This document shows positions 4,408 to 24,357 of a DNA stretch of 32,000 nt, piece by piece. Below the pieces are notes generated by a model that saw only the letters and a program-made list of their open reading frames with translations, was not told the origin of the DNA and ran no database searches. This DNA is from an uncultured Methanosarcinales archaeon (GTDB lineage: Archaea; Nanobdellota; Nanobdellia; Woesearchaeales; JAHJBD01): contig CAZHRT010000010.1 of the NCBI GenBank assembly GCA_964534665.1, forward strand, positions 1 to 32,000. Reading direction: 5' to 3'. Position numbers and translations under genes: made by a program. The first letter of the stretch is position 1. Every line of letters begins with the position of its first letter.

Positions 4408-5931
4408 ATGGGAACTGAATTTAAAGAAAGGAAAAAAGCCTTAACTGATAAAGAAGGGGTTAAGAAACAGCATGCAAAAGGTAAATTAACTGCTCAAGAA
4501 AGAATTGATCTTCTTTTAGATGATGATTCGTTTACTGAACTTGGTGGTTTTGCTGAATTACAAAGCCATGATTTTAATCTTAAAGAAAAAAGTAGGGCTA
4601 GAGATGGTGTAATAACAGGATATGGTACTATTGGAGGCAATCCAATTTATGTTTATGCACAAGATTTTACTTTTATGGGTGGATCAATGGGTGAGATGCA
4701 TAATCATAAAATTGCTGAACTCATGGATACTGCACTTAAAACCGGTGCACCAATTGTTGGTTTACTTGATTCTGGTGGTGCAAGGATTCAAGAAGGGATT
4801 AATGGTTTAGATGGTGGTGGTAAAATCTTCTTAAGAAATACACTAGCTTCTGGTATTATTCCACAAATTAGTGCGATTATGGGGCCTTGTGCAGGAATTG
4901 CTGTATATTCACCAGCTATTACTGATTTTATTTTTATGATTGATAAAACAAGTAATATGTTTATTACTGGTCCAGATGTTATAAAATCTGTTACTGGAGA
5001 AACAATAAGTTTTGATGATTTAGGTGGTCAAAACGCACATTCAAGAAAAAGCGGAGTATGTCATTTTGAGACTGGAAGCGAAAAAGAGTGTATATTAAAA
5101 ATTAAGAAATTGTTAAGTTACCTGCCACAAAATAACATGGCTAATCCTCCATTAAAAAATACTGGAGATAACACAAAAAGGTTAAATAATAATCTTAAAG
5201 ATATTGTACCAAATGATTCAAAGAAATCTTATGATGTTAGAGATGTTTTAAAAGAAGTTTTTGATAAGAATTCATTTTTTGAAGTTCAAGAAAACTATGC
5301 ACAAAATATTGTAATAGGATTTGCAAGATTAAATAATAATGTTGTTGGTTTAGTTGCTAACCAACCTTGTGTTTTAGCAGGGTGTTTAGACATTAATTCA
5401 TCTGATAAGATTGCACGTTTTGTAAGATCTTGTGATAGTTTTAATATTCCTTTAATTAATATGGTAGACGTAACTGGATTTTTACCAGGAACAGACCAAG
5501 AACACAAGGGAATAATTAGGCATGGTGCAAAGATATTATATGCATATTCTGAAGCAACCGTTCCAAAAATATCATTAGTTATGAGAAAAGCATATGGTGG
5601 GGCGTACATAGCTCTTGTTTCAAAAGATATGGGTTATGACAAAGTAATTGCTTGGCCAGATGCTGAGATTGCGGTAATGGGTGCTGAACAAGCTGTTAAT
5701 ATAATTAATAGAAAAGAATTACTAGGAAAAGATGCTGATAAAATCAGAAAAGAAAAAGTTAAAGAATATTCAGAGAAATTCTTAAATCCATATGTTGCAG
5801 CAGAACAAAATAAAGTAGATATAATTATTGATCCAAGTGAAACAAGAAAAACACTTATTTCTGTATTAGATATGTTGATGAATAAGAGGGTAAGAAGACC
5901 TTCAAAAAAACACGGCAGTATACCATTATAA
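4408..5931 (+). CDS. Acyl-CoA carboxylase carboxyltransferase subunit (PccB/AccD5/12S family, fused alpha-beta CT)
   Basis: 507 aa. It shows FTFMGGSMG, GPCAGIAVYSPAITDF, RFVRSCDSFNIPLINMVDVTGFLPG and RKAYGGAYIA, which are typical of the two crotonase-like CT halves. Confidence 0.9.
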   Translation: MGTEFKERKKALTDKEGVKKQHAKGKLTAQERIDLLLDDDSFTELGGFAELQSHDFNLKEKSRARDGVITGYGTIGGNPIYVYAQDFTFMGGSMGEMHNHKIAELMDTALKTGAPIVGLLDSGGARIQEGINGLDGGGKIFLRNTLASGIIPQISAIMGPCAGIAVYSPAITDFIFMIDKTSNMFITGPDVIKSVTGETISFDDLGGQNAHSRKSGVCHFETGSEKECILKIKKLLSYLPQNNMANPPLKNTGDNTKRLNNNLKDIVPNDSKKSYDVRDVLKEVFDKNSFFEVQENYAQNIVIGFARLNNNVVGLVANQPCVLAGCLDINSSDKIARFVRSCDSFNIPLINMVDVTGFLPGTDQEHKGIIRHGAKILYAYSEATVPKISLVMRKAYGGAYIALVSKDMGYDKVIAWPDAEIAVMGAEQAVNIINRKELLGKDADKIRKEKVKEYSEKFLNPYVAAEQNKVDIIIDPSETRKTLISVLDMLMNKRVRRPSKKHGSIPL

Positions 5932-5932
5932 A

Positions 5933-6313
5933 ATGGAAGAAATAAAAGTAAATATTGATGGTGAAGAGCATAGTGTCCAAGTTGAAGAGTTAGAAGATGG
6001 TAAATTAAGGGTTATGCTTGAGGGTTCTGTTTTTGATATTGAAACAAAACAAGATATTAAAGAAGAAATTATTGAAGAAAAGTCTAAAAAAGGTGAAGAA
6101 GAAGGAGTTGTTGTTGCACCTTTGCCTGGAACAGTGGCATCTATTTCTAAAAAAGTTGGTGATAAAGTTAAGAAAGGAACTTCAATACTAAAATTAGTTG
6201 CCATGAAGATGGAAAACGACATAAAATCTAATAAAGATGGTGTTATTAAAGAAATTAAGATTAAAAAGAATGATACTGTTAATAAGGGAGATATTTTAGT
6301 AATAGTAGATTAA
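5933..6313 (+). CDS. accB: Biotin carboxyl carrier protein (stand-alone biotinyl domain)
   Basis: 126 aa. The C-terminal biotinyl/lipoyl-type domain carries the canonical biotinylation motif in LVAMKMEN. It starts 1 nt after the CT stop. Confidence 0.85.
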   Translation: MEEIKVNIDGEEHSVQVEELEDGKLRVMLEGSVFDIETKQDIKEEIIEEKSKKGEEEGVVVAPLPGTVASISKKVGDKVKKGTSILKLVAMKMENDIKSNKDGVIKEIKIKKNDTVNKGDILVIVD

Positions 6314-6456
6314 GATGCTTCTAAACTTGGTTGTTGTACTTTGATTTTAACCCCATTTCTTTGAAGTTGAGCTATAAGTCTCTTATTTTCTTTTGTAATA
6401 GCTTCTTCTTGAAAATGATAAATCATCTCATTTAGTTCTTCAATCTCTTCCATCAT
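6310..6456 (-). CDS. Small 48-aa ORF (hypothetical, helical/charged)
   Basis: My own translation gives MMEEIEELNEMIYHFQEEAITKENKRLIAQLQRNGVKIKVQQPSLEAS. Its ATG overlaps the TGA of the upstream 75-aa membrane-protein gene (ATGA). It is below the ORF-track length cutoff and I recognise no homology. Confidence 0.3.
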   Translation of the reverse strand: MMEEIEELNEMIYHFQEEAITKENKRLIAQLQRNGVKIKVQQPSLEAS

Positions 6457-6680
6457 TTTCCCCTCGTATTACTTCCTAATAGAATTCCTGATAACACATT
6501 AAGTGCCCATGCTTGAAAAACATTTATAAAATATAATTTTCCAAAAACAAAGTTCCATAACCACATAACTGGAAATGCTAGAATTAAGCCAACTATTGCG
6601 CTTAATACTACAATAAGAAGCATTGTGTAGAAAAGATCTACAATCTTTTTTAAGACTGGAACTCTTTTTAATATCCCCAT
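6453..6680 (-). CDS. Small two-TM membrane protein (hypothetical)
   Basis: 75 aa with two clear hydrophobic helices (LLIVVLSAIVGLILAFPVMWLW and AWALNVLSGILLG). An AT-rich promoter-like region lies upstream. The alternative-frame ORF 6499-6699 was rejected. Confidence 0.5.
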   Translation of the reverse strand: MGILKRVPVLKKIVDLFYTMLLIVVLSAIVGLILAFPVMWLWNFVFGKLYFINVFQAWALNVLSGILLGSNTRGK

Positions 6681-6744
6681 GATTTATGTAAACACACACT
6701 TGTTTTTAAAGTTTTTGAAAAAAGATATAAATGAGTAGATATTA

Positions 6745-7137
6745 ATGGTTTTTATGAATATAACAAAGCACAGGGTTAGGTATGCAGACACTGATCATTT
6801 TGGGGTTGTGTATTATGCTCGTTATTTAGATTGGTTTGAAGCTGGTAGAACAGAAATTTTGCGTGATCAAGGAATTACATACGCCGATTTAGAAAAAAAA
6901 GGTATGTTTGCCCCTGTTGTTGAGATTAAAGTTGAATATAAGAAACCTGCTAAGTATGATGATGTAGTTGAATTAGAAACTACGATAGATAAGATAGGGA
7001 ATTCTAGTATTAAGTTTAATTATAAAGTATTTAATTCTAAAAAAGAATTGTTGTGTGAAGCGTATACAGTTAATGTGTTTATTGATAAAGATATGAAACC
7101 TGTAAGAATTCCAGATAATATTCGTGCTATTGAATAA
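6745..7137 (+). CDS. Acyl-CoA thioesterase, hotdog fold (YbgC/4HBT class)
   Basis: 130 aa. RVRYADTDHFGVVYYARYLDWFEAGRTEILR matches the catalytic-Asp N-terminal region of YbgC-type thioesterases. The start could be the second ATG, at 6757 (MNITKH...). Confidence 0.85.
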   Translation: MVFMNITKHRVRYADTDHFGVVYYARYLDWFEAGRTEILRDQGITYADLEKKGMFAPVVEIKVEYKKPAKYDDVVELETTIDKIGNSSIKFNYKVFNSKKELLCEAYTVNVFIDKDMKPVRIPDNIRAIE

Positions 7138-7792
7138 AAACATCCCCTTCAATAATTTTAATTTTCTTGTTGTCTTTTTTTATTATTAAGAATCCCTCAT
7201 TGTCTAGATTGTATGCAATACCTTCAAAGGTTTTGTTCATTGTTTTAACTTTTACTTTATCTCCGAGGAAAGAATATTTCTTCCAATCTTCAAAAATTTT
7301 CTTTTTATTTATCTTCTTTGTATAAGAATTAAGATTTTTAATTAATGATTTAAGGATATTTTCTTTGTTAATTTCTTTTTTTAAAATGGATTTTAAATTA
7401 GTTGATTTTGTATTTAGATGTAAAGGGGTTTTATTGTTTACATTAATTCCAATTCCCACAATAGTTTTATCTTCAAGGTTTGTAGTAAGGATACCGCAAA
7501 CTTTTTTCTTTTCATAATATAAATCATTTGGCCATTTGATAACTGTTTTTATTTTAGTTATTTCTTTTACTGCTTTATACGCTGCTAAACAGCCAATAAA
7601 AGTGTACAGTTGTGGTTGATCAATCTTAGGTAGAACTATTGATAAATAAATTCCCCCTTTATTAGAACTCCAGGTTCTCTTAAAGCGACCATGACCGTTA
7701 GCTTGGGTCTCAGCAATTAAAATAGAACCAATAGAATAATCTTTTGCTAAATCGTTTGTAGAACTAATTTGTTTAAATTTAAAAATTGTCAT
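7127..7792 (-). CDS. birA: Biotin--protein ligase (class I, no DNA-binding domain)
   Basis: 221 aa. GHGRFKRTWSSNKGGIYLS corresponds to the GRGRxGRxWxSxxGxxLyxS biotinyl-AMP loop, and KWPNDL is also present. It overlaps the accC stop region by 14 nt and converges on the thioesterase gene with an 11-nt overlap. Confidence 0.85.
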   Translation of the reverse strand: MTIFKFKQISSTNDLAKDYSIGSILIAETQANGHGRFKRTWSSNKGGIYLSIVLPKIDQPQLYTFIGCLAAYKAVKEITKIKTVIKWPNDLYYEKKKVCGILTTNLEDKTIVGIGINVNNKTPLHLNTKSTNLKSILKKEINKENILKSLIKNLNSYTKKINKKKIFEDWKKYSFLGDKVKVKTMNKTFEGIAYNLDNEGFLIIKKDNKKIKIIEGDVFIQ

Positions 7793-9668
7793 GATCCATT
7801 AATTCTCTCCTGCCAGACATTACCCATTCATTTGATTGTTGTTTAACAGGTTTTTTCTCGCCTAAATATTTAGTTACTGCAGTTGAGACTATAAGAAGTT
7901 TTTCTTTCTTAGTTAATTTTTTCTTAGTGCTCATAAAATTCTTGACCTCGTCTAAAATATTGTTTTTATCTATGAATGCTGTGGTAACATTGCCTTTGAT
8001 GAAATTATTGTTTCTTATAACTGCTTTATGGAAAGGGATTGTTGTATCTACTCCCTCTATAACATATTCATCTAATGCTCTTCGCATTCTAGATATTGCT
8101 TCCAATCTAGTTTTACCTCTACACATTAATTTAGATATCATTGAATCATAATGAGGGGAAATTATGTGGCCTGTATGTGAAGAAGAACAAATTCTTATAC
8201 CAGGGCCGCCAGGTGCGAGATAGTTAGTGATTGTTCCATTGGAAGGAACAAACTCTATAGGGGATTCTGCATTAATCCTACATTCGATTGCCCAACCATC
8301 AATTTTTATATCTTCTTGTTTAAATGCTAGTTTTGCTCCTGCAGCAATCTTTATTTGTTCTTTAATAAGATCAACACCTGTAATTAATTCGGTAACGCCA
8401 TGTTCAACTTGAATACGAGTATTCATTTCCATAAAATAGAATTTTTGATTTTTATCTAAAAGGAATTCAACTGTTCCTGCACCCTCATAACCTACAACTT
8501 CTCCAGCCTTGATTGCAATTTTACCCATCTCTTCACGCATGTTTGGTGTGATTGCTGGTGAAGGTGCCTCTTCTACTAGTTTTTGATGTCTTCTTTGTAT
8601 GCTACAGTCTCTTTCACCTAAATGGACCACATTACCGTAACGATCTGCGAGAATTTGGAACTCTATATGTTTTGGATCCTCAATAAATTTTTCCATGTAC
8701 ATTGAATCATCGCCAAAAGCAGCTCCAGCTTCTGTTTTTGCACTGTTAAATAAAGATTCTAAATCTTCTTTTTTGTATATGACTCTCATACCACGTCCGC
8801 CGCCGCCAGCTACTGCTTTAATAATAATGGGATACCCTATATTGTCTGCTAATTCCCTAGCATGTTCTGGTGTTTTTAGAAGGTCTTTTACACCTTCAAT
8901 AACTGGAACTTTTGCTTTTATCATAGTTGAACGGGCCTTACTCTTGTTCCCCATTAATTCCATTGCACGTGAAGAAGGGCCAATAAACTTAATCTTATTT
9001 TCTTCACACAATTTGGCAAAATTGGCGTTTTCAGAAAGAAAACCATATCCTGGATGAATTGCGTCTGCTTTAGCTTTTTTAGCAATCTTGATAATTTTCT
9101 TAAAATCAAGATATGCGTTTGGATTGCCTATATTATAGCTTTTATCAGCAAATTTTACAGCTAACCCATCTTTGTCTGGTTTTGAATAAATAACAGTAGT
9201 ATGAATCTTTAGTTCTTTACATGCACGAATAATCCTTAATGCAATTTCACCACGATTCGCAATTAAAACGTTCTTAAATGGCTTTTTATTTCCTAATTTA
9301 GTATAATCTCTTTCTTTAATCATATCAGGACTTAATCCTTTGGTTAACATATCAATGAATGATTTTGAAGAGTCTTCTTCAACAATCTTTTGAATTTTAT
9401 TAGAATCAAGATTTGGTAGTTTATCCATAACATTTTTTGTGATTAGGTTTGTAAAATCATCAATATTTGTTGAATTTGGTAAATGGTCTTCTTTTTCAAG
9501 ACTAATAAGGTGGGATTTAACAAGAGATTCAACTTTCTCATAAATATATGGCATTGAATCTTTAGTTGTTTTCATTAACTTTCTAACTAATTTTGCCCCT
9601 TTAGGTAAAGGTGAAAGTAGATGATTCAGAATCTTCTCAGTACGCCTTTTTTTCCTTCTTCTTGCCAT
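7779..9668 (-). CDS. accC: Biotin carboxylase (ATP-grasp) subunit with an unusual ~140-aa N-terminal extension
   Basis: 629 aa. The core starts near residue 141 (FKNVLIANRGEIALRIIRACKEL) and includes YPIIIKAVAGGGGRGMRV, EMNTRIQVEH and RINAE. The extension begins MARRRKKRRTEK, and there is also a ~60-aa C-terminal tail. Confidence 0.9.
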   Translation of the reverse strand: MARRRKKRRTEKILNHLLSPLPKGAKLVRKLMKTTKDSMPYIYEKVESLVKSHLISLEKEDHLPNSTNIDDFTNLITKNVMDKLPNLDSNKIQKIVEEDSSKSFIDMLTKGLSPDMIKERDYTKLGNKKPFKNVLIANRGEIALRIIRACKELKIHTTVIYSKPDKDGLAVKFADKSYNIGNPNAYLDFKKIIKIAKKAKADAIHPGYGFLSENANFAKLCEENKIKFIGPSSRAMELMGNKSKARSTMIKAKVPVIEGVKDLLKTPEHARELADNIGYPIIIKAVAGGGGRGMRVIYKKEDLESLFNSAKTEAGAAFGDDSMYMEKFIEDPKHIEFQILADRYGNVVHLGERDCSIQRRHQKLVEEAPSPAITPNMREEMGKIAIKAGEVVGYEGAGTVEFLLDKNQKFYFMEMNTRIQVEHGVTELITGVDLIKEQIKIAAGAKLAFKQEDIKIDGWAIECRINAESPIEFVPSNGTITNYLAPGGPGIRICSSSHTGHIISPHYDSMISKLMCRGKTRLEAISRMRRALDEYVIEGVDTTIPFHKAVIRNNNFIKGNVTTAFIDKNNILDEVKNFMSTKKKLTKKEKLLIVSTAVTKYLGEKKPVKQQSNEWVMSGRRELMDHDNF

Positions 9669-9812: not shown

Positions 9813-10313
9813 ATGAAAACAATAGACGAACTTAAGAATGAAAAAGGAGAATTAGATATGAATGCGATTAAGCAGATTATTCCATATGAACATCCATTTT
9901 TAATGATTGATAAAGTAATTAGTGTTGATAAAAATAAGATAGTGGCAATAAAGAATGTTTCAGCTTCTGATGAATTCTTAAAAGGTCATTTTGCTGGATT
10001 TCCCATTATGCCGGGTGCATTAATGGTAGAAGGTATGGGGCAAGCAGCTACTTTGCTTATTAGATATAATCTTGAAGAACATTTCAAGAAAGATGTTCTA
10101 GCATTTAAAATAAAAGATGCTAAATTCACTGCACCAGCTTTTGCAGGTGATCAACTAGAGTATGAAGTTGTATTAATGGGCCAAGACGAAAGAGGTGCTT
10201 TAGTACAAGCTAAAGCTAAGAAAGAAGGAAATGTAATAGCTGAAGCTGGAATGATGCTTGCTGTTGTTGACAAAAAAGAATTTAGATCTCAACATAGTCC
10301 TGTTTATAAGTGA
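9813..10313 (+). CDS. fabZ: FabZ-like (R)-3-hydroxyacyl-thioester dehydratase (hotdog fold)
   Basis: 166 aa. IPYEHPFLMIDKV...KNVSASDEFLKGHFAGFPIMPGALMVEGMGQAA matches the FabZ catalytic His/Glu block (lPHRyPFLlvDrv...GHFP..PimPGvl.iEa.aQ). Confidence 0.85.
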   Translation: MKTIDELKNEKGELDMNAIKQIIPYEHPFLMIDKVISVDKNKIVAIKNVSASDEFLKGHFAGFPIMPGALMVEGMGQAATLLIRYNLEEHFKKDVLAFKIKDAKFTAPAFAGDQLEYEVVLMGQDERGALVQAKAKKEGNVIAEAGMMLAVVDKKEFRSQHSPVYK

Positions 10314-10318
10314 TTTAA

Positions 10319-11443
10319 ATGTATATAAAAGGGGTTGGAATGACCCAATTTAGTCTAGAAGATAGAAGCACTCATGCCATGGCTTTTGAAGCTGTGACAG
10401 GTGCATTGAAAGATGCAGACATGTCTATAAATGATGTTGAAGCTTGTGTTGTATCAACAGTTGATACTAATGCAAATGATGAAAAACAAAGGCATTATCC
10501 TTCTGTTGTTAGTTCTTTATTTAAGAAAAGAATCCCTATAATTAGGGTGCCTGCTGTTTGTGGTGGTGGTGGTGCAGCTTTATGGACAGCAAATAGATTA
10601 GGATATGATAATGTACTTGTTTTAGGAACAGATAAGATTGCTTGTAATAAAACAGGAGTAGTAACAAAAGAAATTTTAGGTGCTGCTGAAAGAGTTTATA
10701 GTCAAGAAGAAGGATTGGTTTTTCCTGCTGAGAATGCAATTCTTGCACAACAACATATGTTAAAATTTGGAACGACAACTGATGATTTAGCAGAAGTTGC
10801 TTTTAAGAATCATGAAAATGCATTTATTAATCCAAAAGCTAATTTTTATGGGAAAAAAGTAAGTCTTGAACAAATTAAGAATTCTCCTGTTGTTTCCTCA
10901 CCGTTTAGATTATTTGATTGTAGTATTAGTGTAAATGGAGCAGCAGCTGTTGTTTTATCCAAAGACAAAACAGATGTTAATATTGCAGGATCTGGATTTG
11001 CAACTGATTACTTGATGACTTTTGAAAGAGAAAGTATGGTTGAATTAAAAGCTACTAGATTAGCAGCTGAACAAGCTTATTCACAAGCAGGGATTAATGC
11101 TTCAGAGGTTAATGTTGCTGAGGTTCATGATGCTTTTACTATCTTAGAAATAATGGCATATGAAGATTTGGGTTTTTGTAAGAAAGGTGAAGGTGCTAAT
11201 TTAATAAGAAAAGGAATTGTTAAATTAGATGGTAAGATTCCTGTTAATACTAGTGGTGGGCTTAAAGCCAGAGGACATCCAATAAGTCCAACTGGATTAG
11301 CTCAGATTTATGAAATAGTTAAACAATTAAGAGGGGACTGTGGAGATAGACAGATTAGTTCACCAAAATATGGCCTTACTGAAAATAAAGGTGGTGTTGG
11401 TGCTTCAATCAGTGTTCACGTCCTTAAGAAGGTAGGTGGTTAG
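10319..11443 (+). CDS. Thiolase-fold acyl-CoA C-acyltransferase (archaeal/SCP-x-like type), paralogue 1
   Basis: 374 aa. The candidate nucleophile Cys is in IIRVPAVCGGGGAALW. AEVHDAFT and SGGLKARGHPISPTG are also present. Confidence 0.85.
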   Translation: MYIKGVGMTQFSLEDRSTHAMAFEAVTGALKDADMSINDVEACVVSTVDTNANDEKQRHYPSVVSSLFKKRIPIIRVPAVCGGGGAALWTANRLGYDNVLVLGTDKIACNKTGVVTKEILGAAERVYSQEEGLVFPAENAILAQQHMLKFGTTTDDLAEVAFKNHENAFINPKANFYGKKVSLEQIKNSPVVSSPFRLFDCSISVNGAAAVVLSKDKTDVNIAGSGFATDYLMTFERESMVELKATRLAAEQAYSQAGINASEVNVAEVHDAFTILEIMAYEDLGFCKKGEGANLIRKGIVKLDGKIPVNTSGGLKARGHPISPTGLAQIYEIVKQLRGDCGDRQISSPKYGLTENKGGVGASISVHVLKKVGG

Positions 11444-12566: not shown

Positions 12567-12569
12567 AAT

Positions 12570-14606: not shown

Positions 14607-14608
14607 GA

Positions 14609-15763: not shown

Positions 15764-15774
15764 GACATTAAAAG
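15751..15774 (+). repeat. Right copy of the duplicated korA/korB junction (functional korB start)
   Basis: See the left copy at 13610-13642. The DegT C-terminus (KNEV-stop) mirrors the KorA C-terminus (LNGM-stop) at the nucleotide level. Confidence 0.55.
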
Positions 15775-17001: not shown

Positions 17002-18128
17002 AAGGTGTTGGTTGTACACCATATAGGATTCATGAGAAAAAATCACATATGTTAGCTTATGATGCGATTAGTCAAGCCTTAAAAGATGCTGATACGTCTT
17101 TAGATAAGATTGATGGTATTGTTTGTAGTACGTTAGAATGGTTTTTTACTGAGGAAAATCAAAGACATTTTGCTGCAATGCTTTCTGGTTTGTTAAAAAC
17201 TAATAAACCAATAATAAGGGTGCCTGCTGCTTGTGCTGGAGGGGGAACAGCCTTATGGACAGCTAATAAAATGGGATTTGATAATGTATTGGTTGTTGGT
17301 GTTGAAAAACTACATGGACATACAAGAAATACTGATATGATTACAAAAGAATTTGGTATGGCTGCTGAATCTAAATGGGAGCAAACTGAAGGTGTTAATT
17401 TTCCTGGAGAAAATGCTTTAGTTGCACAAGCATACCTTAACAAATTTCCCGAAACAACTATGAATGATCTTGCTTTGATATCGTTAAAGAATCATGAAAA
17501 TGCTTTTTTAAATCCTAATGCTTATTTTTATGGGAAAAAAGTTAACTTGGATCAAATTAAGAATTCACCAATAATAACTTCGCCATTAAGATTATTTGAT
17601 TGTAGTGTAAGTGTTGATGGGGCTGCAGCTGTTGTTTTATCTAAAGATAAAACAGATGTTAAAATTGCAGGGTCATCATTATGTTCTGATTACCTTCCGC
17701 CTTTTGAAAGGGATGATATGACAACATGGGAAGGAACATTAAGAACTGGCAATGAAGTTTTTGAGCAAACAGGTTTAGAAAGAAGTGAGATTGATTTTGC
17801 TGAATTACATGATGCTTTTACAATAGTTGAACTATTAACATACGAAGATCTTGGTTTTTGTAAGAAAGGGGAAGCGTATAAAATGATTAGGGATGGTAGA
17901 TTTAAGATTGATGGAAAGATGCCTGTAAATGTTTCTGGTGGATTAAAAGCTAAAGGGCATCCTGTTTCTGCAACTGGTCTTGGAATGATATATGAGATTG
18001 TTAAACAAATACGTGGTGAATCTGGTGATAGACAAATTAGTAAAACTAGAAATGCGCTTGCCCATAATATTGGTGGAGCAGGTGGTACAACCGCCGTACA
18101 CATACTAAAGAAAATTGGAGGGGTTTAA
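16992..18128 (+). CDS. Thiolase-fold acyl-CoA C-acyltransferase, paralogue 2
   Basis: 378 aa, roughly 55-60% identical by eye to the protein at 10319-11443. Shared blocks include IIRVPAACAGGGTALWTAN, NHENAF, YGKKV, LRLFDCSVSVDGAAAVVLSKDKTDVKIAGS, YEDLGFCKKGE and SGGLKAKGHP. No DUF35 partner is adjacent. Confidence 0.85.
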   Translation: MYVKGVGCTPYRIHEKKSHMLAYDAISQALKDADTSLDKIDGIVCSTLEWFFTEENQRHFAAMLSGLLKTNKPIIRVPAACAGGGTALWTANKMGFDNVLVVGVEKLHGHTRNTDMITKEFGMAAESKWEQTEGVNFPGENALVAQAYLNKFPETTMNDLALISLKNHENAFLNPNAYFYGKKVNLDQIKNSPIITSPLRLFDCSVSVDGAAAVVLSKDKTDVKIAGSSLCSDYLPPFERDDMTTWEGTLRTGNEVFEQTGLERSEIDFAELHDAFTIVELLTYEDLGFCKKGEAYKMIRDGRFKIDGKMPVNVSGGLKAKGHPVSATGLGMIYEIVKQIRGESGDRQISKTRNALAHNIGGAGGTTAVHILKKIGGV

Positions 18129-18875
18129 ATGGAAGACTTAAAAGGTAAAACTGCATTAATAACTGGTGGTTCTCAAGGTATAGGTAAAGCTATTGCTATA
18201 GCAATGGCAAAAGAGGGTGCTAATATTATTATCAATGATATTGAACCTGCAAAAGAAGGGGCTGAAGCAACAGTTGCTGAATTAAAAGAATTTGGTGTTG
18301 ATGCTATGGCAGCTTATGCAGATGTTTCAGATTTTGAACAAGTTAAATCTATGGTTGAACAAATTAAAGAAAAATTCCCAGTAATTAATGTATTGGTAAA
18401 TAATGCAGGAATAACTAAAGATAGAACATTAAAAAAGATGACTCCTGAAGAATGGAATGCTGTAATAAATGTTAATCTTAATTCAATCTATAATGTAACG
18501 CATAATGTTTTGGGGCTTATACCTGAAGGTGGTTCGATTATATCTTTATCTTCTATTGCTGGAGTTGGAGGAAATTTTGGACAGTGCAATTATGCATCAA
18601 CTAAAGCCGGGATTATTGGATTTACAAAGTCTCTTGCAAAAGAGTTAGGAAAAATGAAGATTACTGTTAATGCGATTGCCCCAGGATTTATCAAAAGTAA
18701 GATGACTGATAAAATCCCTGTAATGATGCTTGATCAAATATTGGACTTAATACCTTCAAAAGAGATGGGACAGCCTGAAGATGTTGCTAATTTAGCAGTG
18801 TTTTTGGCATCTAATAAGGGTAAATATGTAAATTCTCAAGTAATCAGAGTAGATGGCGGCATGATGTTTGGTTGA
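18129..18875 (+). CDS. fabG: 3-oxoacyl-thioester reductase, classical SDR (FabG / PhaB acetoacetyl-CoA reductase type)
   Basis: 248 aa with TGGSQGIGKAIA, NNAGIT and S...YASTKAG. The segment KKMTPEEWNAVINVNLNSIYNVTHNV resembles CoA-dependent PhaB at least as much as ACP-dependent FabG. Confidence 0.9.
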   Translation: MEDLKGKTALITGGSQGIGKAIAIAMAKEGANIIINDIEPAKEGAEATVAELKEFGVDAMAAYADVSDFEQVKSMVEQIKEKFPVINVLVNNAGITKDRTLKKMTPEEWNAVINVNLNSIYNVTHNVLGLIPEGGSIISLSSIAGVGGNFGQCNYASTKAGIIGFTKSLAKELGKMKITVNAIAPGFIKSKMTDKIPVMMLDQILDLIPSKEMGQPEDVANLAVFLASNKGKYVNSQVIRVDGGMMFG

Positions 18876-18927
18876 GTACAATAAACTTTAAATAGGGTTT
18901 TTATTTACCTTCTTTAGGGGATATAAC

Positions 18928-20082
18928 TTGGATTTTAATTATACTAAAAAACAATTAATGCTTTACCACACTATTAGGAATTTTGTAGAGAAAGAAATTA
19001 TTCCTTATGCTCAAGATATTGATCATGAAGAAATATTTCCAATCGAACAAATTAAGAAATTAGCTAAGATGGGCGTTATGGGGATGTCTATACCTAAAAA
19101 GTATGGTGGGGCTGAACTTGATAATGTTTCTCAAACTATAATTATGGAAGAAGTTAGTCGTGCTTGTGCTTCAACTTCTGTTACAATGGGGGCACATACT
19201 TCTTTATGTTGTTATCCAATTGTAAATCATGGTACTAATGCTCAAAAAGAAAGGTGGTTACCTAAACTTGCTTCAGGCGAGTGGTTAGGTGCTTTTGCGC
19301 TTACAGAACCAAATGCTGGTTCTGATGCTGTTAATGTACAAACAACTGCTGTTAGAGATGGAGACGATTACATAATTAATGGTAACAAAGTTTTTATTAC
19401 AAATGGTGGAAAATGTGATTTTGTTCCAATTGTTTGTACAACTGATCCTTCTGCTAAACATAAGGGATTAGCTATTTTTGGGATTGAAACAAAAAATACT
19501 CCAGGATTTAAAGTTGGGAAGAAAGAGGATAAGCTGGGTTTAAGAGGTTCAAATACTTGTGAACTTGTGTTTGAAGATATGCGTGTTCCAAAAGAAAATT
19601 TAGTTAGTGGTAAAGAAGGCGAAGGCTTTAAGATTTCTATGGGTGTATTTAATTCTGGAAGGATTGGAATTGGAGTACAGGGTGTTGGAATTGCACAAGC
19701 AGCATTTGATGAATGTATGAAATATGTTAGTGAAAGAGAACAGTTTGGAAGGCCTTTAAAGAAATTTCAAGCTATACAGTTTCAGATGGCTGAAATGGCA
19801 ACTAAAATTGAAGCTGCTCGTTTATTATGTTTGAAAGCTGCACATGTAAAAGATCAAGGTAAAAATTATATCAAACATGCTGCAATGGCTAAATATTATG
19901 GAAGCGATGTTTCAATGGAAGTTACAAGACAAGCTATACAAATACATGGTGGTTATGGTTATATGAAAGATTATCCATTAGAAAGATTTTACAGAGATGC
20001 AAAGATTACTGAGATTTATGAAGGTACAACAGAAATCCAAAAATTAGTTATTGGAAATGAATTGTTTGGGAGAGGTTTTTAA
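18928..20082 (+). CDS. Acyl-CoA dehydrogenase (short-chain/butyryl-CoA dehydrogenase-like)
   Basis: 384 aa with GAFALTEPNAGSDA, ITNG and IYEGTTEIQ. It uses a TTG start with GGGGA 7 nt upstream. Confidence 0.9.
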   Translation: MDFNYTKKQLMLYHTIRNFVEKEIIPYAQDIDHEEIFPIEQIKKLAKMGVMGMSIPKKYGGAELDNVSQTIIMEEVSRACASTSVTMGAHTSLCCYPIVNHGTNAQKERWLPKLASGEWLGAFALTEPNAGSDAVNVQTTAVRDGDDYIINGNKVFITNGGKCDFVPIVCTTDPSAKHKGLAIFGIETKNTPGFKVGKKEDKLGLRGSNTCELVFEDMRVPKENLVSGKEGEGFKISMGVFNSGRIGIGVQGVGIAQAAFDECMKYVSEREQFGRPLKKFQAIQFQMAEMATKIEAARLLCLKAAHVKDQGKNYIKHAAMAKYYGSDVSMEVTRQAIQIHGGYGYMKDYPLERFYRDAKITEIYEGTTEIQKLVIGNELFGRGF

Positions 20083-20085
20083 TGA

Positions 20086-20131: not shown

Positions 20132-20134
20132 TCA

Positions 20135-20917
20135 ATGAACATCATTGTTTGTGTAAAACAAGTACCTGATACAAATGATATTAAGATTGATCCTGTTAAA
20201 GGGACTTTAATTAGAGAGGGAGTTCCATCAATTATCAATCCAGAAGATAATAATGCTATTGAGGCGGCTTTGCAAATAAAAGGTGAAGGTAAAGTTACTG
20301 TTCTTTCAATGGGGCCACCACAAGCTGAAGAAGCTTTAAGGGAAGCTATTGCAATGGGTGTTGATGAAGCTATTCTTGTCTCAGATTTTAAGTTTGCTGG
20401 TTCTGATACATGGGCAACTGCAAATGTATTGGCAAGTGCTGTTAAGAAATTAGACTATGACCTAATAATTTGTGGAAGGCAAGCAATTGATGGGGATACT
20501 GCACAAGTGGGTCCCCAATTAGCTGAAAATTTGGGTTTACCACAAATCACTTATGTTCAAAAAATTGAAGTTGGAGAGGGTGTATTAAAAGTTCAAAGAG
20601 CTCTTGAAGATGGATATGAAATAATAGAAGGAAAGTTGCCTGTTTTAATAACCGTAGTAAAAGAAATTAACAATCCAAGATATCCAACATTACAAGGAAT
20701 TGATAAAGCTTATGAAACTGATATTATTAAATGGACAGCAGATGATATTGAAGCAGATCCTGCAAAAATTGGACTTAAAGGTTCTCCAACACATGTAAAA
20801 AAGAGTTTTGTTCCTCCTGGAAAAGGCCAAGGAATAAAATTAGATGGACCTACTAAAGATATTGCAAAACAATTAATTGGAATCTTAAAAGAAAAAGAGA
20901 TTATCCAAGAATTTTAA
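20135..20917 (+). CDS. etfB: Electron-transfer flavoprotein, beta/small subunit (bifurcating-type signature)
   Basis: 260 aa with MNIIVCVKQVPD and GRQAIDGDTAQVGPQLAENLGLPQITYV. Confidence 0.9.
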   Translation: MNIIVCVKQVPDTNDIKIDPVKGTLIREGVPSIINPEDNNAIEAALQIKGEGKVTVLSMGPPQAEEALREAIAMGVDEAILVSDFKFAGSDTWATANVLASAVKKLDYDLIICGRQAIDGDTAQVGPQLAENLGLPQITYVQKIEVGEGVLKVQRALEDGYEIIEGKLPVLITVVKEINNPRYPTLQGIDKAYETDIIKWTADDIEADPAKIGLKGSPTHVKKSFVPPGKGQGIKLDGPTKDIAKQLIGILKEKEIIQEF

Positions 20918-20918
20918 A

Positions 20919-22088
20919 ATGGTAAAAATAAAATTAACTGATAATTATCCTGGATCAACACTTACAATAGATGGTGTTATGCTTAGTTTAGGAGATGATT
21001 TTGTTGATGTTGAGAAATCATTAGATTTACAGCAAGCACTTAATAATGGTTATGTTGAAATTCAAGAAGAAAAAGAAGAGAATAAAGTTGAGGAAGTAAA
21101 AGAAGGTGAAGAAGTTTGGATTTTTGCAGAACAGCGTGCAGGAAAATTTGCTAGAGTTGCACTTGAGCTTTTAGGAAAAGCACGTGAGTTAGCAGATCAT
21201 CAAGGTGTTAAAGTTGGTGCTTTGTTATTATGTGATAAAGATTGCGGATTATCCTCAGAATTAATTTCTAGGGGTGCAGATAAAGTTTATCTAGCTGAAT
21301 CTGAGAAATTTAAGAATTATGAAACTTTAAATTTTACTAAAACTATTTGTGAAATTATAAATAAAGAAAAACCTCAAATTGTAATATATGGTGCAACACA
21401 TATTGGTAGAGATTTAGCACCAAGAATTGCTCAAAGGATTGCAACTGGTTTAACTGCTGATTGTACTGGTTTAAACATTGATGAAGATGGTTTATTGATA
21501 CAAACAAGGCCTGCTTTTGGTGGGAACTTAATGGCTGAAATTAAATGTCCTGAACATAAACCTCAAATGTCTACTGTAAGACCAGGTATTATGAAAATGC
21601 TTGACAAGACAGAAAGAGAAGGTTCTGTTGTTAAATGTGAAATTTCACTTGAGGAAGATGATAGAATCAAAGTTTTAGAAGTAATTAAAGAAACTAGGAA
21701 AGTTGCTAATCTTGAAGAAGCTGAAATAATTGTGTCTGGTGGACGAGGTGTTGGAAGTCCTGAAAATTTTAAACTTATTGAAGAGTTAGCAAAAGAGTTG
21801 GGTGCTGAGATTGGAGCGTCACGTGCAGTTATTGATGCTGGTTGGGTTCCAAAAGATCATCAAGTTGGACAAACAGGTAAAACAGTAACACCAAAATTAT
21901 ATTTGGCTTGTGGAATTTCTGGTGCTATTCAGCATAGGGCTGGAATGCAAAATTCTGATACAATTGTTGCTATTAATAAAGATCCTAATGCGATGATTTT
22001 TTCTGTTGCTGATTATGGCATTGTTGGTGATTTAAACAAGGTTATTCCGGCTTTAATTGAAGAGCTTAAGAATGGCAAAACTTTATAA
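20919..22088 (+). CDS. etfA: Electron-transfer flavoprotein, alpha/large subunit with a ~65-aa Cys-free N-terminal extension
   Basis: 389 aa. The canonical EtfA begins at VWIFAEQRAGKFARVALELLGKAREL. The C-terminal FAD domain shows SGGRGVGS, ASRAVIDAGW and QVGQTGKTVTPKLYLACGISGAIQH. Confidence 0.9.
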   Translation: MVKIKLTDNYPGSTLTIDGVMLSLGDDFVDVEKSLDLQQALNNGYVEIQEEKEENKVEEVKEGEEVWIFAEQRAGKFARVALELLGKARELADHQGVKVGALLLCDKDCGLSSELISRGADKVYLAESEKFKNYETLNFTKTICEIINKEKPQIVIYGATHIGRDLAPRIAQRIATGLTADCTGLNIDEDGLLIQTRPAFGGNLMAEIKCPEHKPQMSTVRPGIMKMLDKTEREGSVVKCEISLEEDDRIKVLEVIKETRKVANLEEAEIIVSGGRGVGSPENFKLIEELAKELGAEIGASRAVIDAGWVPKDHQVGQTGKTVTPKLYLACGISGAIQHRAGMQNSDTIVAINKDPNAMIFSVADYGIVGDLNKVIPALIEELKNGKTL

Positions 22089-22113
22089 GTGCTATTAGTT
22101 CTAAATAGATAAT

Positions 22114-22755
22114 ATGAAACCAAGTTTTGTTACAAAATTAAGTATACGGCTTGCCAAACTATGGGTAAGAAATATCTCTGGTCTAGAGAATATTCCAGAT
22201 AATGGCAAGTTTATAATCGCAGCAAACCATTCTAGTTTTTTAGATGATTTTCTAATGCCTGGAATTGCAATACTAAAAATAAAAAAACTTGTACATATGT
22301 ATTGTAATGATAGGTTCTATAAAAATAAAATCTTTGCAGCATATCTAAATTCTTCTCAGTGCATACCCATTTCAATACAGACAAAGAATAAAGATACTAA
22401 CAAAAAAGCTTTTGAAACAGCATTAAATCATCTTAAAAACAACGAACCAATAGGCATCTTCCCAGAAGGTGGCCGTTCTAAGAATGGTGAACTTAAGGAA
22501 GCAAGAACAGGAATTGCAAAACTTGCATTAACAGCAAAAGTTCCTATATTACCTATTGGACTCGCAGGTTCATATGATGTATTTCCTAGGAATGTAAAAT
22601 TTCCAAAATTTAAACGATGTGAGATAAAAATAGGTAAGCCAATTTACTTGGATAAATATTATGAAGAATCAGATAACCAGAAAGTTCTTAAAGATATAAC
22701 TACAAAAATAATGAAAGAAATAGCTAAATTAACCGGACAGGAGTATAATTATTAA
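22114..22755 (+). CDS. PlsC-family (LPLAT) glycerol-phosphate/lysophosphatidate acyltransferase, paralogue 1
   Basis: 213 aa with the H-x4-D motif in AANHSSFLDDF, FPEGGRS and VPILPIGL. Confidence 0.8.
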   Translation: MKPSFVTKLSIRLAKLWVRNISGLENIPDNGKFIIAANHSSFLDDFLMPGIAILKIKKLVHMYCNDRFYKNKIFAAYLNSSQCIPISIQTKNKDTNKKAFETALNHLKNNEPIGIFPEGGRSKNGELKEARTGIAKLALTAKVPILPIGLAGSYDVFPRNVKFPKFKRCEIKIGKPIYLDKYYEESDNQKVLKDITTKIMKEIAKLTGQEYNY

Positions 22756-22756
22756 A

Positions 22757-23389
22757 ATGGTATATTTAATTTCAAAAAAGATTATATCTGGAATAATGAA
22801 GTTCTGGACAAAAGAAGTTATTGGATTAGAAAATCTTCCAAAAAAAAAGTTTGGGTTCATTGTAGCTGCTAATCATGGAAGTTATTTAGATCATTTTTTT
22901 ATTGGAACTATTATAACACCTAAACTTAATAGGGCAATACATTTTTTAGCTAAAAAAGAGCACTTTGATAGTTTTATACAAAGAAAATGGCATAATTACC
23001 TTCAAGCTATTCCAATTGATAGGCAGGCTGGTGGTAAAGAAGCGTTAAAACATGCTATTGATGCATTGCAAGAAGGCAAAATCATCTCAATTTATCCAGA
23101 AGGAACAATAACATTAACAGGAAAAATTCAAGAAGGTAAAACCGGTGTTGCTAGGTTAGCTATTGCTGCTAAAGTTCCTGTTTTACCAATTGGAATAAAT
23201 GGATCATTTGAAATACTACCAAAAGGTAAATGGATACCTAAATTTAAAAGAGCAACAATTAAAATAGGAAAATTAATGTATTTTGATAAATATTATGGGA
23301 AAGATGAAGATAGAAAAGTTACAAGAGAAGTAACGGATAATATTATGAAAGAAATAGGAAAGTTAGCAGGAAAGAGGTATAAAGAATGA
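22757..23389 (+). CDS. PlsC-family (LPLAT) acyltransferase, paralogue 2
   Basis: 210 aa with the H-x4-D motif in AANHGSYLDHF, YPEGTIT and VPVLPIGI. It starts 1 nt after paralogue 1 and is about 40% identical to it by eye. Confidence 0.8.
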   Translation: MVYLISKKIISGIMKFWTKEVIGLENLPKKKFGFIVAANHGSYLDHFFIGTIITPKLNRAIHFLAKKEHFDSFIQRKWHNYLQAIPIDRQAGGKEALKHAIDALQEGKIISIYPEGTITLTGKIQEGKTGVARLAIAAKVPVLPIGINGSFEILPKGKWIPKFKRATIKIGKLMYFDKYYGKDEDRKVTREVTDNIMKEIGKLAGKRYKE

Positions 23390-24357
23390 TTGCTGTAATT
23401 GGTGCTGGGTCTTGGGGAACAACACTTGCTAGAATTCTAGCTTTGAATGGGCATTCGGTAAAGTTGTGGGTTAGAGAAAAAGAATTATTTGATATTCTAG
23501 AAAAAGAAAAAGAGAATACTTGGTTTTTAAAAGGTATTAAATTACCAAATAATATTACTTTTGTTAATGATTTTAAAAAAGTTAATGGTTGTGAATATGT
23601 TGTTACTGCCATACCTTGTCAATATGTTCGTGGTGTATTAACTAAGTTCGCACCTTTTATATCTAAGAATGCAAAAATAATTAATGTTGCAAAAGGAATT
23701 GAACAAGGAACTTTCAAAAGGATTTCTTCAATAATAAAAGAGATTTTACCAAATAAGATTGTTGCTGTTATGTCTGGACCTAATCATGCTGAAGAAGTAA
23801 GTAAAGAATTGCCAACTGCAACAGTAATTGCACATAAAGACAAAAGTGTTTGTGAAGAATTTTGTAAGTTATTTGCAACATCCAATTTTAAAGTTTATCC
23901 ACATGATGATATTATTGGTGTGGAAGTATGTGCGGCTGTAAAAAATATTACTGCAATTGCAACTGGTGTTGTTGCAGGGATTGGTTTTGGTGATAATGCG
24001 ATGGGTGCAATAATGACTTATGGATTAATGGAAATGAATACTGTTGCAAAATTCTTAGGTGGAAAACAAAAAACAATCTATGGTCTTGCAGGGGTTGGTG
24101 ATTTAATTGCAACTTGTAGTTCTAAACATAGTAGAAATAGGTTTACTGGTCAAAAGATTGCAGAAGGCAAAAGTTATGATGAAATCTACAAAGAAATGGG
24201 TGGCATGGTAGCTGAAGGTGTCCATACTGCTAAAGCTGTTCATGAATTTGCTATTAAGAATGAACTTAACTTACCATTAACTACTCAAACATACAAAGTA
24301 TTATTTGAAAATAAAAATTTAAAAGAAGCAGTATCAGATTTAAAAAATCTGATATGA
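23386..24357 (+). CDS. gpsA: NAD(P)H-dependent sn-glycerol-3-phosphate dehydrogenase
   Basis: 323 aa with IAVIGAGSWGTTLA, NVAKGIE, SGPNHAEEV, AAVKNITAIATG and GLAGVGDLIATCSSKHSRNRFTGQKIAEG. It aligns closely by eye with E. coli GpsA along its whole length. There is a 4-nt overlap with plsC paralogue 2. Confidence 0.9.
   Translation: MIAVIGAGSWGTTLARILALNGHSVKLWVREKELFDILEKEKENTWFLKGIKLPNNITFVNDFKKVNGCEYVVTAIPCQYVRGVLTKFAPFISKNAKIINVAKGIEQGTFKRISSIIKEILPNKIVAVMSGPNHAEEVSKELPTATVIAHKDKSVCEEFCKLFATSNFKVYPHDDIIGVEVCAAVKNITAIATGVVAGIGFGDNAMGAIMTYGLMEMNTVAKFLGGKQKTIYGLAGVGDLIATCSSKHSRNRFTGQKIAEGKSYDEIYKEMGGMVAEGVHTAKAVHEFAIKNELNLPLTTQTYKVLFENKNLKEAVSDLKNLI

Follow-up and report, generated by a model that had tools for sequence, protein, structure and literature searches.

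A Woesearchaeal gene cluster linking genes for acyl-CoA carboxylation, a predicted acyl-chain cycle and predicted glycerol-3-phosphate acylation

Could an archaeon of the DPANN group carry, at a single locus, a route from acyl-CoA to glycerolipids of the bacterial kind? The question is raised by a block of 19 lipid-related genes at positions 4408-24357 of a 32,000-nucleotide stretch of archaeal DNA (contig CAZHRT010000010.1 of assembly GCA_964534665.1; the whole stretch is here termed the 'window', with a G+C content of 31%), which is bounded by the archaeal genes for RadB on one side and for uS2, RadA and RPA on the other. Archaeal membranes are normally built from isoprenoid ethers on sn-glycerol-1-phosphate (G1P), whereas those of Bacteria and Eukarya consist of fatty-acyl esters on sn-glycerol-3-phosphate (G3P). 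Known as the 'lipid divide', this contrast poses a central question, still unsolved, in the study of early evolution and of eukaryogenesis, with natural organisms that have mixed or swapped their lipids as its only living test cases.

We propose that the block belongs to a lineage-wide lipid supercluster, in which an archaeal condensing module that would work independently of acyl carrier protein (ACP) is joined to processing and glycerolipid enzymes of bacterial type, such that acyl-CoA synthesis would lead, through acylation of G3P, to phosphatidic acid; an account that we judge probable, if by no wide measure. The underlying gene map was drawn from a list of open reading frames (ORFs) together with Pfam and NCBIfam scans of the window proteins (Table 1), and every gene named in an original prediction, made from the letters of the window alone, is present. 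On paper, this order-wide archaeal gene set covers the greater part of a path that starts with acetyl-CoA and ends with phosphatidic acid.

Linkage that is kept over a whole order is a stronger sign of a functional unit than a single locus can be. Two sets of loci were assembled, one centred on GpsA in species-representative genomes (L007-L013, among the matches listed in a GpsA profile search) and one centred on the DUF35::DUF362 protein in metagenomes (L091-L170), and the window proteins were mapped by tblastn onto all loci of at least 6 kb; 54 related loci were counted. The gene order recurs in these 54, at 42-78% protein identity to the window, and the linkage of carboxylase, acyl-chain cycle and G3P-backbone genes that had been predicted from this one locus is thus conserved over the whole order; what had been called 'scattered' homologues form, in Woesearchaeota, a lineage-wide cluster. 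With arrowheads for strand, the consensus order reads RadB> carboxyltransferase (CT)> biotin carboxyl carrier protein (BCCP)> (BioY) (thioesterase) <BirA <biotin carboxylase (BC) FabZ> thiolase> DUF35::DUF362> (alpha, beta and gamma subunits of a 2-oxoacid:ferredoxin oxidoreductase, OFOR) thiolase> short-chain dehydrogenase/reductase (SDR)>. RadB is followed by CT in 11 related loci, the thioesterase keeps its window position in 10, FabZ lies directly upstream of a thiolase in 41 of the 54, and OFOR is found in 10 of the 54; uS2 is present in 24, and is convergent with gpsA in the gpsA-centred loci and in what we term variant A.

It is downstream of the SDR that the loci part ways. In variant A (11 loci and the window) the order continues with butyryl-CoA dehydrogenase (Bcd)> EtfB> EtfA> PlsC> PlsC> GpsA> <uS2, whereas in variant B (24 loci) Bcd and the electron-transfer flavoprotein (Etf) are absent, one or two FabG-like SDRs stand in their place, one of them fused to a methyltransferase, and the PlsC-PlsC-GpsA unit is inverted beside uS2 in most loci. 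The conserved core is therefore the acyl-CoA carboxylase (ACC) with BirA, FabZ, two thiolases on a DUF35 scaffold, an SDR, two PlsC and GpsA, and the reductase module is exchangeable, being either Bcd/EtfAB or SDR-type genes. Since this core survives the exchange of the reductase in 24 loci, a Bcd/Etf fermentation is not what the cluster is built around.

The host is a small-genome archaeon of the Woesearchaeales, in the DPANN group. Homologues of its GpsA at 54-75% identity number more than 100, and all those with a source name come from Woesearchaeota or Nanoarchaeota; bacterial GpsA, which make up most of the matches listed in a genome scan, stand there at 38-44% identity. The same two source names account for all source-named members of the DUF35::DUF362 family (279 members) and for all of those among the best 120 of the 706 members of the PlsC2 family. 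Two related loci, L007 (CAZMIO010000014.1) and L008 (CAZDZV010000001.1), come from metagenome-assembled genomes titled 'uncultured Methanosarcinales archaeon' yet contain the Woesearchaeal cluster between these same flanks, their proteins being 56-78% identical to those of the window; that label is probably wrong for both.

An assembly chimera, which the original prediction had asked to be excluded, is excluded, because both junctions recur in some 24 independently assembled contigs. At least 24 contigs, which come from assemblies of JGI, ENA, Logan and NCBI and are up to 217 kb long, carry the exact GpsA protein, all of them with the same junction of gpsA and uS2 and the same downstream RadA and RPA genes; the junction of RadB with CT is likewise present in 24 contigs, as found by look-up with the GT2 glycosyltransferase protein. 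Such contigs occur in oxygen-deficient or euxinic waters. As had been stated, 1 nt separates the stop codon of gpsA from that of uS2, and the archaeal context read from RadB, uS2, RadA and RPA is confirmed, with RadB, uS2 and RadA flanking the cluster in relatives too. A comparison of codon usage between block and flanks, also suggested at the outset, showed G+C content at third codon positions (GC3) to be equal (0.13-0.23 in block genes, 0.15-0.23 in flank genes); the correlation of relative synonymous codon usage, at 0.91, falls slightly under that of split-half controls (0.96-0.98). Block and flanks lie, for the most part, on opposite strands. The match in GC3 and the lineage-wide synteny point to long residence in the lineage. 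As the gene order and the RadB, uS2 and RadA flanks are kept at 42-78% identity, the cluster is old and vertically inherited in the Woesearchaeales lineage. A recent island of horizontal gene transfer was considered as a candidate and rejected, on the grounds of the same GC3 and synteny.

The condensing module is archaeal, consisting of thiolases and a DUF35 scaffold, and FabZ, FabG, Bcd/EtfAB, the two PlsC and GpsA are bacterial-like. Thiolase 1 aligns end to end with the archaeal acetyl-CoA acetyltransferases 7yvy_A and 6esq_A, its best matches in the Protein Data Bank (PDB), and shares with them the motifs AxCxxGG, EVHDAFT and GGLKARGHP; it thus resembles the thiolase of M. thermolithotrophicus that binds DUF35. 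Thiolase 2 has identical motifs and reaches 336.8 bits with PRK06064, under the cut-off of 420. The two genes, listed side by side in the original prediction, are not adjacent but lie about 5.5 kb apart, and it is the stop of thiolase 1 that overlaps, by 8 nt, the start of the DUF35::DUF362 gene.

On the DUF35 part of that protein, the prediction and Pfam disagree, since the Pfam DUF35 models give no match; a structure model and a fold search nevertheless support the assignment. An AlphaFold (AF2) model built from 26 homologues (pLDDT 85, pTM 0.87) was searched against the PDB with Foldseek, and residues 1 to about 100 matched DUF35 subunits of thiolase-family complexes, namely BbsA (7pyt_A), ChsH2 (6ok1, chain D), the DUF35 protein of the M. 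thermolithotrophicus thiolase/HMGCS complex (6esq_E-G), PhlB (5m3k_B) and S. solfataricus 3irb (chain B), with E-values of 1e-4 to 5e-3 and a probability of 1.0; the zinc-ribbon cysteines Cys10/13/24/27 are conserved. The DUF362 part (11800-12566) matched LarA-family lactate/malate racemases (7s91, 6d6z, 2yjg and 5huq; E 3e-8 to 1e-4). The model thus supports a DUF35-like scaffold fused to a DUF362 domain of LarA-like fold. In S. acidocaldarius, experiments have shown a thiolase/DUF35 pair to form a fatty-acid synthase together with the SDR reductase and the hotdog dehydratase that it recruits (bioRxiv 10.1101/2024.07.05.601840). One related locus carries, downstream of the main cluster (L166 15762-19376), a second set of genes, encoding an HMGCS/KAS-III-like protein and a thiolase with 31% identity to thiolase 2, as well as a stand-alone DUF35 protein (PF01796), a MaoC dehydratase and an SDR, which looks like the classical archaeal thiolase/DUF35 arrangement; this is the only place where a MaoC gene was found, and MaoC is not the type of the cluster's own dehydratase.

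Bacterial fatty-acid synthesis relies on FabG- and FabZ-family enzymes for its (R)-3-hydroxy intermediate. The window FabZ exceeds the cut-off of its equivalog model (119.6 against 113 bits), and its catalytic His and Glu were placed by eye in the stretch GHF...VEGMGQ. The FabG-like SDR scores 254.6 bits with NF009466 (cut-off 222) and 279.5 bits with TIGR01830, just under the cut-off of 297.75, and has the S...YxxxK triad. The acyl-CoA dehydrogenase (ACAD) matches the Bcd of the bifurcating complex of C. difficile at 439 bits, and EtfB scores 292 bits with bifurcating CarD (6fah_B) and 281 bits with 5ol2_B, as against about 96 bits with the non-bifurcating human and Paracoccus ETFs, such that ACAD is a candidate enoyl-CoA reductase, which would work with EtfAB of the bifurcating class. 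Enoyl-CoA reduction is the physiological direction of clostridial bifurcating Bcd/EtfAB. The N-terminal domain of EtfA (about 65 aa, 20919-21125), conserved in 10 relatives, has no Cys, while EtfA of L009 alone (7475-7700) has a 2x[4Fe-4S] ferredoxin (Fer4) domain at that position; most of the lineage has apparently exchanged its ferredoxin domain for another.

The OFOR that had been predicted is present, with 512.5 bits for its alpha subunit in the VorB model (cut-off 399) and 95.6 bits with TIGR02175 (cut-off 81.1) for the beta/gamma part; what had been overlooked is that its operon is split, by epimerase and DegT genes that lie in the same orientation and tightly packed between alpha and beta. 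The three OFOR genes are contiguous in L007, L008, L093, L095, L099 and L104, where epimerase and DegT are absent; with this pair, sugar-modification genes have been inserted into a redox operon in the window's species only. A VorB-type enzyme fits a role in providing acetyl-CoA, or acyl-CoA primers that are branched or short; the supply of precursors suggested for it may thus stand as an accessory function, but its restricted occurrence places it outside the core.

Both variant B SDRs score as FabG-like with NCBIfam. The methyltransferase::SDR fusion and associated genes were located at L010 6685-8376, L011 5411-7129 and 7927-9006, and L012 13581-14636, and a CoA-transferase of family III, which includes alpha-methylacyl-CoA racemase, is frequent in this variant; fusion and CoA-transferase together may serve methylated or branched chains, or a BioC-like trick. 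In the gaps of variant B loci lie genes of the Lpd-like, B12 radical-SAM, CoA-transferase III and alpha/beta-hydrolase kinds. Some clusters have a B12-binding radical-SAM protein (DUF4070), a dihydrolipoyl-dehydrogenase-like flavoprotein and an alpha/beta hydrolase (L103 12320-15259; L131 16646-18217; L161 12661-15733; L123 9845-10624), and the DUF4070 gene may be the 'Mss-like' match reported from Black Sea Woesearchaeia (PMC11868695).

At the glycerolipid end, GpsA passes its subfamily model (NF000942) with 382 bits against a cut-off of 257, and in every locus that reaches so far its gene is immediately downstream of, and overlaps, plsC2. The two acyltransferases, each of about 210 aa and 41% identical to one another, carry an HX4D motif (HSSFLD in PlsC1, HGSYLD in PlsC2) and an FPEGGR or YPEGT motif, respectively; PlsC2 matches PlsC of T. 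maritima (5kym) at 9e-18, and PlsC1 is a candidate acyltransferase for G3P or lysophosphatidic acid (lyso-PA). In L009 (isolate Yap2000.bin4.8) gpsA is directly followed by dxr (10972-12153), a gene of the methylerythritol phosphate (MEP) pathway, which matches the published co-location of G3P dehydrogenase with MEP genes.

BC (654 bits with TIGR00514 over its core, cut-off 626.5), BCCP with its biotinyl-lysine motif AMKM and a CT of the 12S/PccB type are all present, and make up a three-subunit acyl-CoA carboxylase of the archaeal/actinobacterial type. CT is closest in the PDB to 1vrg and to PccB 1xnw, and its motif is RKAYGGAYIALVSK; we take it, presumptively, to have Ile at the position of PccB D422. 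From work on Streptomyces PccB and AccB, Ile instead of Asp reportedly goes with acceptance of acetyl-CoA, which offers a lead on the substrate. BC has an N-terminal extension of 125-130 aa (9279-9668, minus strand) that begins MARRRKKRR and gives no Pfam match, and that recurs, at 31-51% identity, in 27 related loci; this is a genuine domain and no mis-called start. Relatives have a BioY biotin transporter gene between BCCP and BirA (e.g. L103 4587-5228), of which tblastn found no remnant in the corresponding window gap (6313-6745; 432 bp), where there are only minus-strand ORFs of 48 aa and 75 aa, the latter hydrophobic. BirA inside the cluster and BioY in relatives argue for an active carboxylase, a hallmark of anabolism. 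The thioesterase exceeds its TIGR00051 cut-off (113.7 against 68.7 bits).

From these parts we assemble the proposed route. Central metabolism, with VorB-type OFOR as an optional source, would provide acetyl-CoA and/or branched acyl-CoA primers, which the two thiolase paralogues, on their DUF35::LarA-like DUF362 scaffold, would extend by a C2 unit; the FabG-like SDR would then reduce the 3-keto group, FabZ would dehydrate the (R)-3-hydroxyacyl thioester, and in variant A Bcd/EtfAB would reduce the enoyl-CoA with NADH, probably coupled to the reduction of ferredoxin. We infer that the cycle would run in the direction of synthesis and with CoA, not ACP, as carrier, the exergonic reduction of enoyl-CoA pulling the unfavourable thiolase condensation forward as in clostridial chain elongation. 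GpsA would furnish sn-glycerol-3-phosphate, and the tandem PlsC paralogues would transfer acyl groups from acyl-CoA to its sn-1 and sn-2 positions to give phosphatidic acid, with one of them presumably filling the first step (G3P acyltransferase) in place of PlsB/PlsX/PlsY. The YbgC-type thioesterase may release free acids or act in proof-reading, and the three-subunit carboxylase with BirA would make malonyl-CoA, or possibly methylmalonyl-CoA.

Several observations weigh against this model. FabZ and FabG normally act on acyl-ACP, and characterised Bcd enzymes prefer C4-C8. In a search range of 52 kb, made up of the window and 10 kb on each side, there are no genes for PlsB, PlsX/PlsY, CdsA or head-group attachment; both PlsC score under the TIGR00530 cut-off (65 and 83 bits for PlsC1 and PlsC2, against 103); and no FabI/K/V or medium-chain dehydrogenase/reductase (MDR) type of enoyl reductase was identified in variant B loci. 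ACP, AcpS or a ketoacyl-ACP synthase (KAS) could also be encoded elsewhere in the genome, although a motif search and phmmer --max with E. coli AcpP gave no ACP-like ORF, either in the window or across 0.97 Mb of related cluster loci, and there is no KAS (FabH/FabF/FabB) or FabD in the window or 10 kb either side, and no MDR/ADH_zinc protein in the window. The thiolase/DUF35 system of S. acidocaldarius makes mainly C8-C10 chains, too short for a bilayer, and the archaeal thiolases are non-decarboxylating (Schmerling 2024), which leaves the conserved ACC without an assigned consumer among the cluster enzymes. A feed of malonyl-CoA from ACC into the cycle, as originally predicted, accordingly finds no support: the condensing enzymes are thiolases of archaeal type, of which the S. 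acidocaldarius example Saci_1114 does not use malonyl-CoA (Schmerling 2024, bioRxiv 10.1101/2024.07.05.601840), and KAS, FabD and ACP were not found in the ranges just given. Finally, Bcd/EtfAB of such archaea have been read only as redox balancing (Huang 2021, PMC8421398).

Beyond this model lies a bolder proposition, which is possible but which we would sooner expect to fail than to hold: that lineages with the cluster have crossed the lipid divide, having lost the GGGPS/DGGGPS route and carrying in their membrane self-made fatty-acyl esters of sn-G3P, produced by a hybrid ACP-free synthase and by a PlsC pair in lieu of PlsB/PlsY. GGGPS and DGGGPS are reported missing from Yap2000.bin4.8, the 94.6% complete genome to which L009 belongs (Huang 2021, PMC8421398), which also counts in favour of the model of phosphatidic-acid synthesis. 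If the bolder proposition is true, no other archaeal lineage would have preceded this one in making a bacterial-type membrane of its own, and the view that these DPANN archaea depend on host lipids would have to be revised. The cluster bears in any case on that assumed dependence, these archaea having been held unable to make lipid building blocks (Huang 2021, PMC8421398; Ding 2025, PMC11868695).

Of the competing explanations, the one that survives best, unlikely but a real contender, makes the block a fermentative or redox module, in which butyrate-type reverse beta-oxidation re-oxidises NADH and reduces ferredoxin for an [FeFe] hydrogenase or Rnf, the thioesterase frees a short acid, and the neighbouring PlsC and GpsA re-acylate scavenged lysolipids. 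The closeness of Bcd/EtfAB to the clostridial bifurcating complex, the presence of a VorB-type OFOR and a thioesterase, and the short-chain specificity of characterised Bcd enzymes all lend it weight, as does the grouping of EtfAB/Bcd with hydrogenase and Rnf, for redox balance, in subgroup J Woesearchaeota (Huang 2021, PMC8421398). Bcd/Etf are, however, dispensable, as the 24 related clusters that are without them retain the thiolases, DUF35::DUF362, FabZ, SDRs, ACC and PlsC/GpsA; Pfam found none of the other enzymes of such a fermentation (Hbd, crotonase, Ptb/Buk or a butyryl-CoA:acetate transferase) in the window or 10 kb either side; release by a thioesterase would waste the energy of the thioester; and ACC and BirA, with BioY in relatives, would have no role. 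It is for these reasons that we favour an anabolic cycle over butyrate fermentation, and the linkage of PlsC-PlsC-GpsA, kept across the order, also speaks against mere neighbourhood.

Decidedly less probable is a specialised acyl product that is not a membrane lipid, such as a precursor of lipoate or biotin, or the acylation of a glycan, protein or signalling lipid, in which case the PF01553 enzymes would act on something that is neither G3P nor lyso-PA. Enzymes of PF01553 do acylate many acceptors, and neither PlsC reaches the TIGR00530 cut-off; the methyltransferase::SDR, alpha/beta hydrolase, CoA-transferase III and B12 radical-SAM genes of variant B hint at modified or methylated chains, and glycosyltransferases flank the window. 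GpsA, however, directly follows and overlaps plsC2 wherever the locus extends to it, and has no obvious role but to make G3P, whilst BioY and BirA point to the import of biotin, not its synthesis, and neither bioF/A/D/B nor lipA/lipB lie near the cluster.

A catabolic role, in which fatty acids taken from a host would undergo beta-oxidation, ACAD/Etf oxidising acyl-CoA and the thiolases cleaving 3-ketoacyl-CoA, we consider very improbable, even though ACAD, ETF and thiolase are the classical set for it and DPANN archaea are presumed scavengers of lipids (PMC11868695). It is disfavoured because the dehydratase and reductase are of the FabZ and FabG types and not of the (S)-specific hydratase/dehydrogenase family, FadB being absent, as is an acyl-CoA synthetase (FadD), from the window and 10 kb either side, and because the Etf belongs to the bifurcating and not the respiratory class, in a group reported to lack a respiratory chain (Huang 2021, PMC8421398); ACC and BirA are anabolic besides. 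An artefact of assembly or binning, by which a bacterial fragment was joined to archaeal DNA, might be suspected from the bacterial-type families of most enzymes and from the unreliable labels of the two related 'uncultured Methanosarcinales' records, but can practically be discounted, with both junctions contiguous in contigs from different samples and assemblers, the same flanks in relatives and the same GC3 in block and flanks.

The cluster is listed with its neighbours in Table 1. ORFs of 801 aa and 221 aa at 28669-31730 (minus strand), and one of 1482 aa just beyond the window (L089 3369-7817), give no Pfam match but are kept in all assemblies of the species. The same archaeal contig carries, some 8 kb upstream of the window, a gene for a response-regulator::GGDEF protein (a diguanylate cyclase; L087 18810-20531), so that signalling of bacterial type is encoded here by a DPANN archaeon. 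Scans of the window for tRNAs and Rfam families gave no match.

Table 1. Genes of the window, with coordinates, strand and basis of assignment
Feature	Position	Strand	Basis or remark
GT2 glycosyltransferase	1059-2315	-	Pfam/NCBIfam
Thioredoxin-like	2312-3004	-	Pfam/NCBIfam
Yip1	3007-3522	-	Pfam/NCBIfam
RadB (left flank kept in relatives)	3688-4371	+	PF08423
Carboxyltransferase (CT, PccB/12S type)	4408-5931	+	PF01039, 616 bits
BCCP	5933-6313	+	PF00364
YbgC/FadM-family hotdog acyl-CoA thioesterase	6745-7137	+	TIGR00051, PF13279, PF03061
BirA, without HTH domain	7127-7792	-	PF03099, PF02237
Biotin carboxylase (AccC) with N-terminal extension	7779-9668	-	TIGR00514
FabZ-type (R)-3-hydroxyacyl dehydratase	9813-10313	+	NF000582, PF07977
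Thiolase 1, archaeal type (ketothiolase)	10319-11443	+	PDB matches
Zinc-ribbon/OB (DUF35-like)::DUF362 protein	11436-12566	+	Structure model and fold search
OFOR alpha, VorB subfamily	12570-13622	+	NF005507
NAD-dependent epimerase/dehydratase	13650-14606	+	PF01370; outside lipid system
DegT/EryC1 aminotransferase	14609-15763	+	PF01041; outside lipid system
OFOR beta, TPP-binding	15753-16481	+	PF02775
OFOR gamma	16471-17001	+	PF01558
Thiolase 2, archaeal type, paralogue of thiolase 1	16992-18128	+	55% identity to thiolase 1
FabG/PhaB-like 3-ketoacyl reductase (SDR)	18129-18875	+	NF009466
Butyryl-CoA-dehydrogenase-type acyl-CoA dehydrogenase (ACAD/Bcd)	18928-20082	+	5ol2_C best PDB match
EtfB, bifurcating type	20135-20917	+	Bit scores against ETF structures
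EtfA, bifurcating type	20919-22088	+	N-terminal domain without Cys
PlsC-family acyltransferase 1	22114-22755	+	PF01553
PlsC-family acyltransferase 2	22757-23389	+	PF01553
GpsA, NAD(P)H-dependent sn-G3P dehydrogenase	23386-24357	+	NF000942, PF01210, PF07479, PF20618
uS2 (right flank kept in relatives, convergent with gpsA)	24359-24958	-	PF00318
YjbQ	between uS2 and RadA	-	Pfam/NCBIfam
RadA	25540-26604	-	Pfam/NCBIfam
YdjM	between RadA and RPA	-	Pfam/NCBIfam
RPA	27613-28611	-	Pfam/NCBIfam

Parts of this picture have been seen before. GpsA, and PlsC in DPANN, have been recorded as sporadic archaeal homologues (Yokobori 2016, PMC5059525; Coleman 2019, PMC6431249); a clade of 52 Woesearchaeota has the MEP pathway, and 'some' have bacterial fatty-acid-synthesis genes that include G3P dehydrogenase, at times beside MEP genes (Castelle 2021, PMC8204110), in whose supplementary tables (text form) the gene names we searched for were not found; and FabG, FabI, FabZ and cyclopropane-fatty-acid synthase have been reported in Woesearchaeota of oxygen-deficient zones (Zhang 2024, PMC10936187). 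The main text of Huang 2021 (PMC8421398) never mentions fatty acids, acyl-CoA, PlsC or G3P. These earlier reports thus share with the present cluster the lineage and some of its genes (G3P dehydrogenase, FabG, FabZ, PlsC homologues, MEP), but deal in gene families or in presence and absence, and in the openly accessible literature we found no account of the 20-kb cluster as a unit, of the thiolase/DUF35::DUF362 module, of ACC/BirA or Bcd/EtfAB as part of it, or of the twin PlsC. The novelty claimed at the outset must therefore be narrowed: fatty-acid genes and G3P dehydrogenase were already on record for Woesearchaeota (PMC8204110, PMC10936187), whereas the cluster as a unit was not found described.

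Among known systems, the closest in its condensing chemistry is the fatty-acid synthase of S. acidocaldarius, with its ketothiolase/DUF35 pair (Saci_1121/1120), SDR (Saci_1104), MaoC (Saci_1085) and MDR enoyl-CoA reductase (Saci_1115; bioRxiv 10.1101/2024.07.05.601840). Shared with it are the translational coupling of an archaeal-type thiolase to a protein of DUF35 fold, the presence alongside of an SDR ketoacyl reductase and of a hotdog dehydratase that is (R)-specific, and CoA thioesters as the presumed carriers, with no ACP or KAS in the ranges searched. Unlike in Sulfolobus, the DUF35 protein of the window is fused to a LarA-like DUF362 domain and there are two thiolase paralogues, the dehydratase is of the FabZ type and not MaoC, the enoyl-CoA reductase would be a flavin-dependent Bcd/EtfAB (or, in variant B, SDRs) and not an NADPH-dependent MDR enzyme, and the cluster is physically linked to ACC/BirA, to GpsA and to two PlsC.

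To the clostridial Bcd/EtfAB system (C. difficile 5OL2; 439 bits for Bcd and 281 for Etf) the likeness is one of enzymes and of drive, in that C2 elongation by thiolase, driven by the reduction of enoyl-CoA, would work alike. It differs from the clostridial butyrate pathway in that the window has no Hbd, crotonase, Ptb/Buk or CoA-transferase, in the (R) stereochemistry to be expected from FabG and FabZ, in the Cys-less N-terminal domain of EtfA, and in that Bcd/Etf can be done without, as in the 24 related clusters. With bacterial type II fatty-acid synthesis the cluster has FabZ and FabG in common, but its condensing enzymes are thiolases and not KAS; and with the bacterial phosphatidic-acid pathway it shares a GpsA over the subfamily cut-off and PlsC-family proteins with HX4D and EGT motifs and a match to PlsC of T. 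maritima, but it has two PlsC in tandem and no PlsB/PlsX/PlsY, and the acyl donor would presumably be acyl-CoA in place of acyl-ACP or acyl-phosphate. Relative to these known kinds, the combination is a new hybrid, of an archaeal thiolase/DUF35 synthase, bacterial FabZ/FabG, clostridial Bcd/Etf and a proposed acylation of G3P by PlsC only, and it shows how a synthase of the archaeal kind can be combined with bacterial and clostridial parts.

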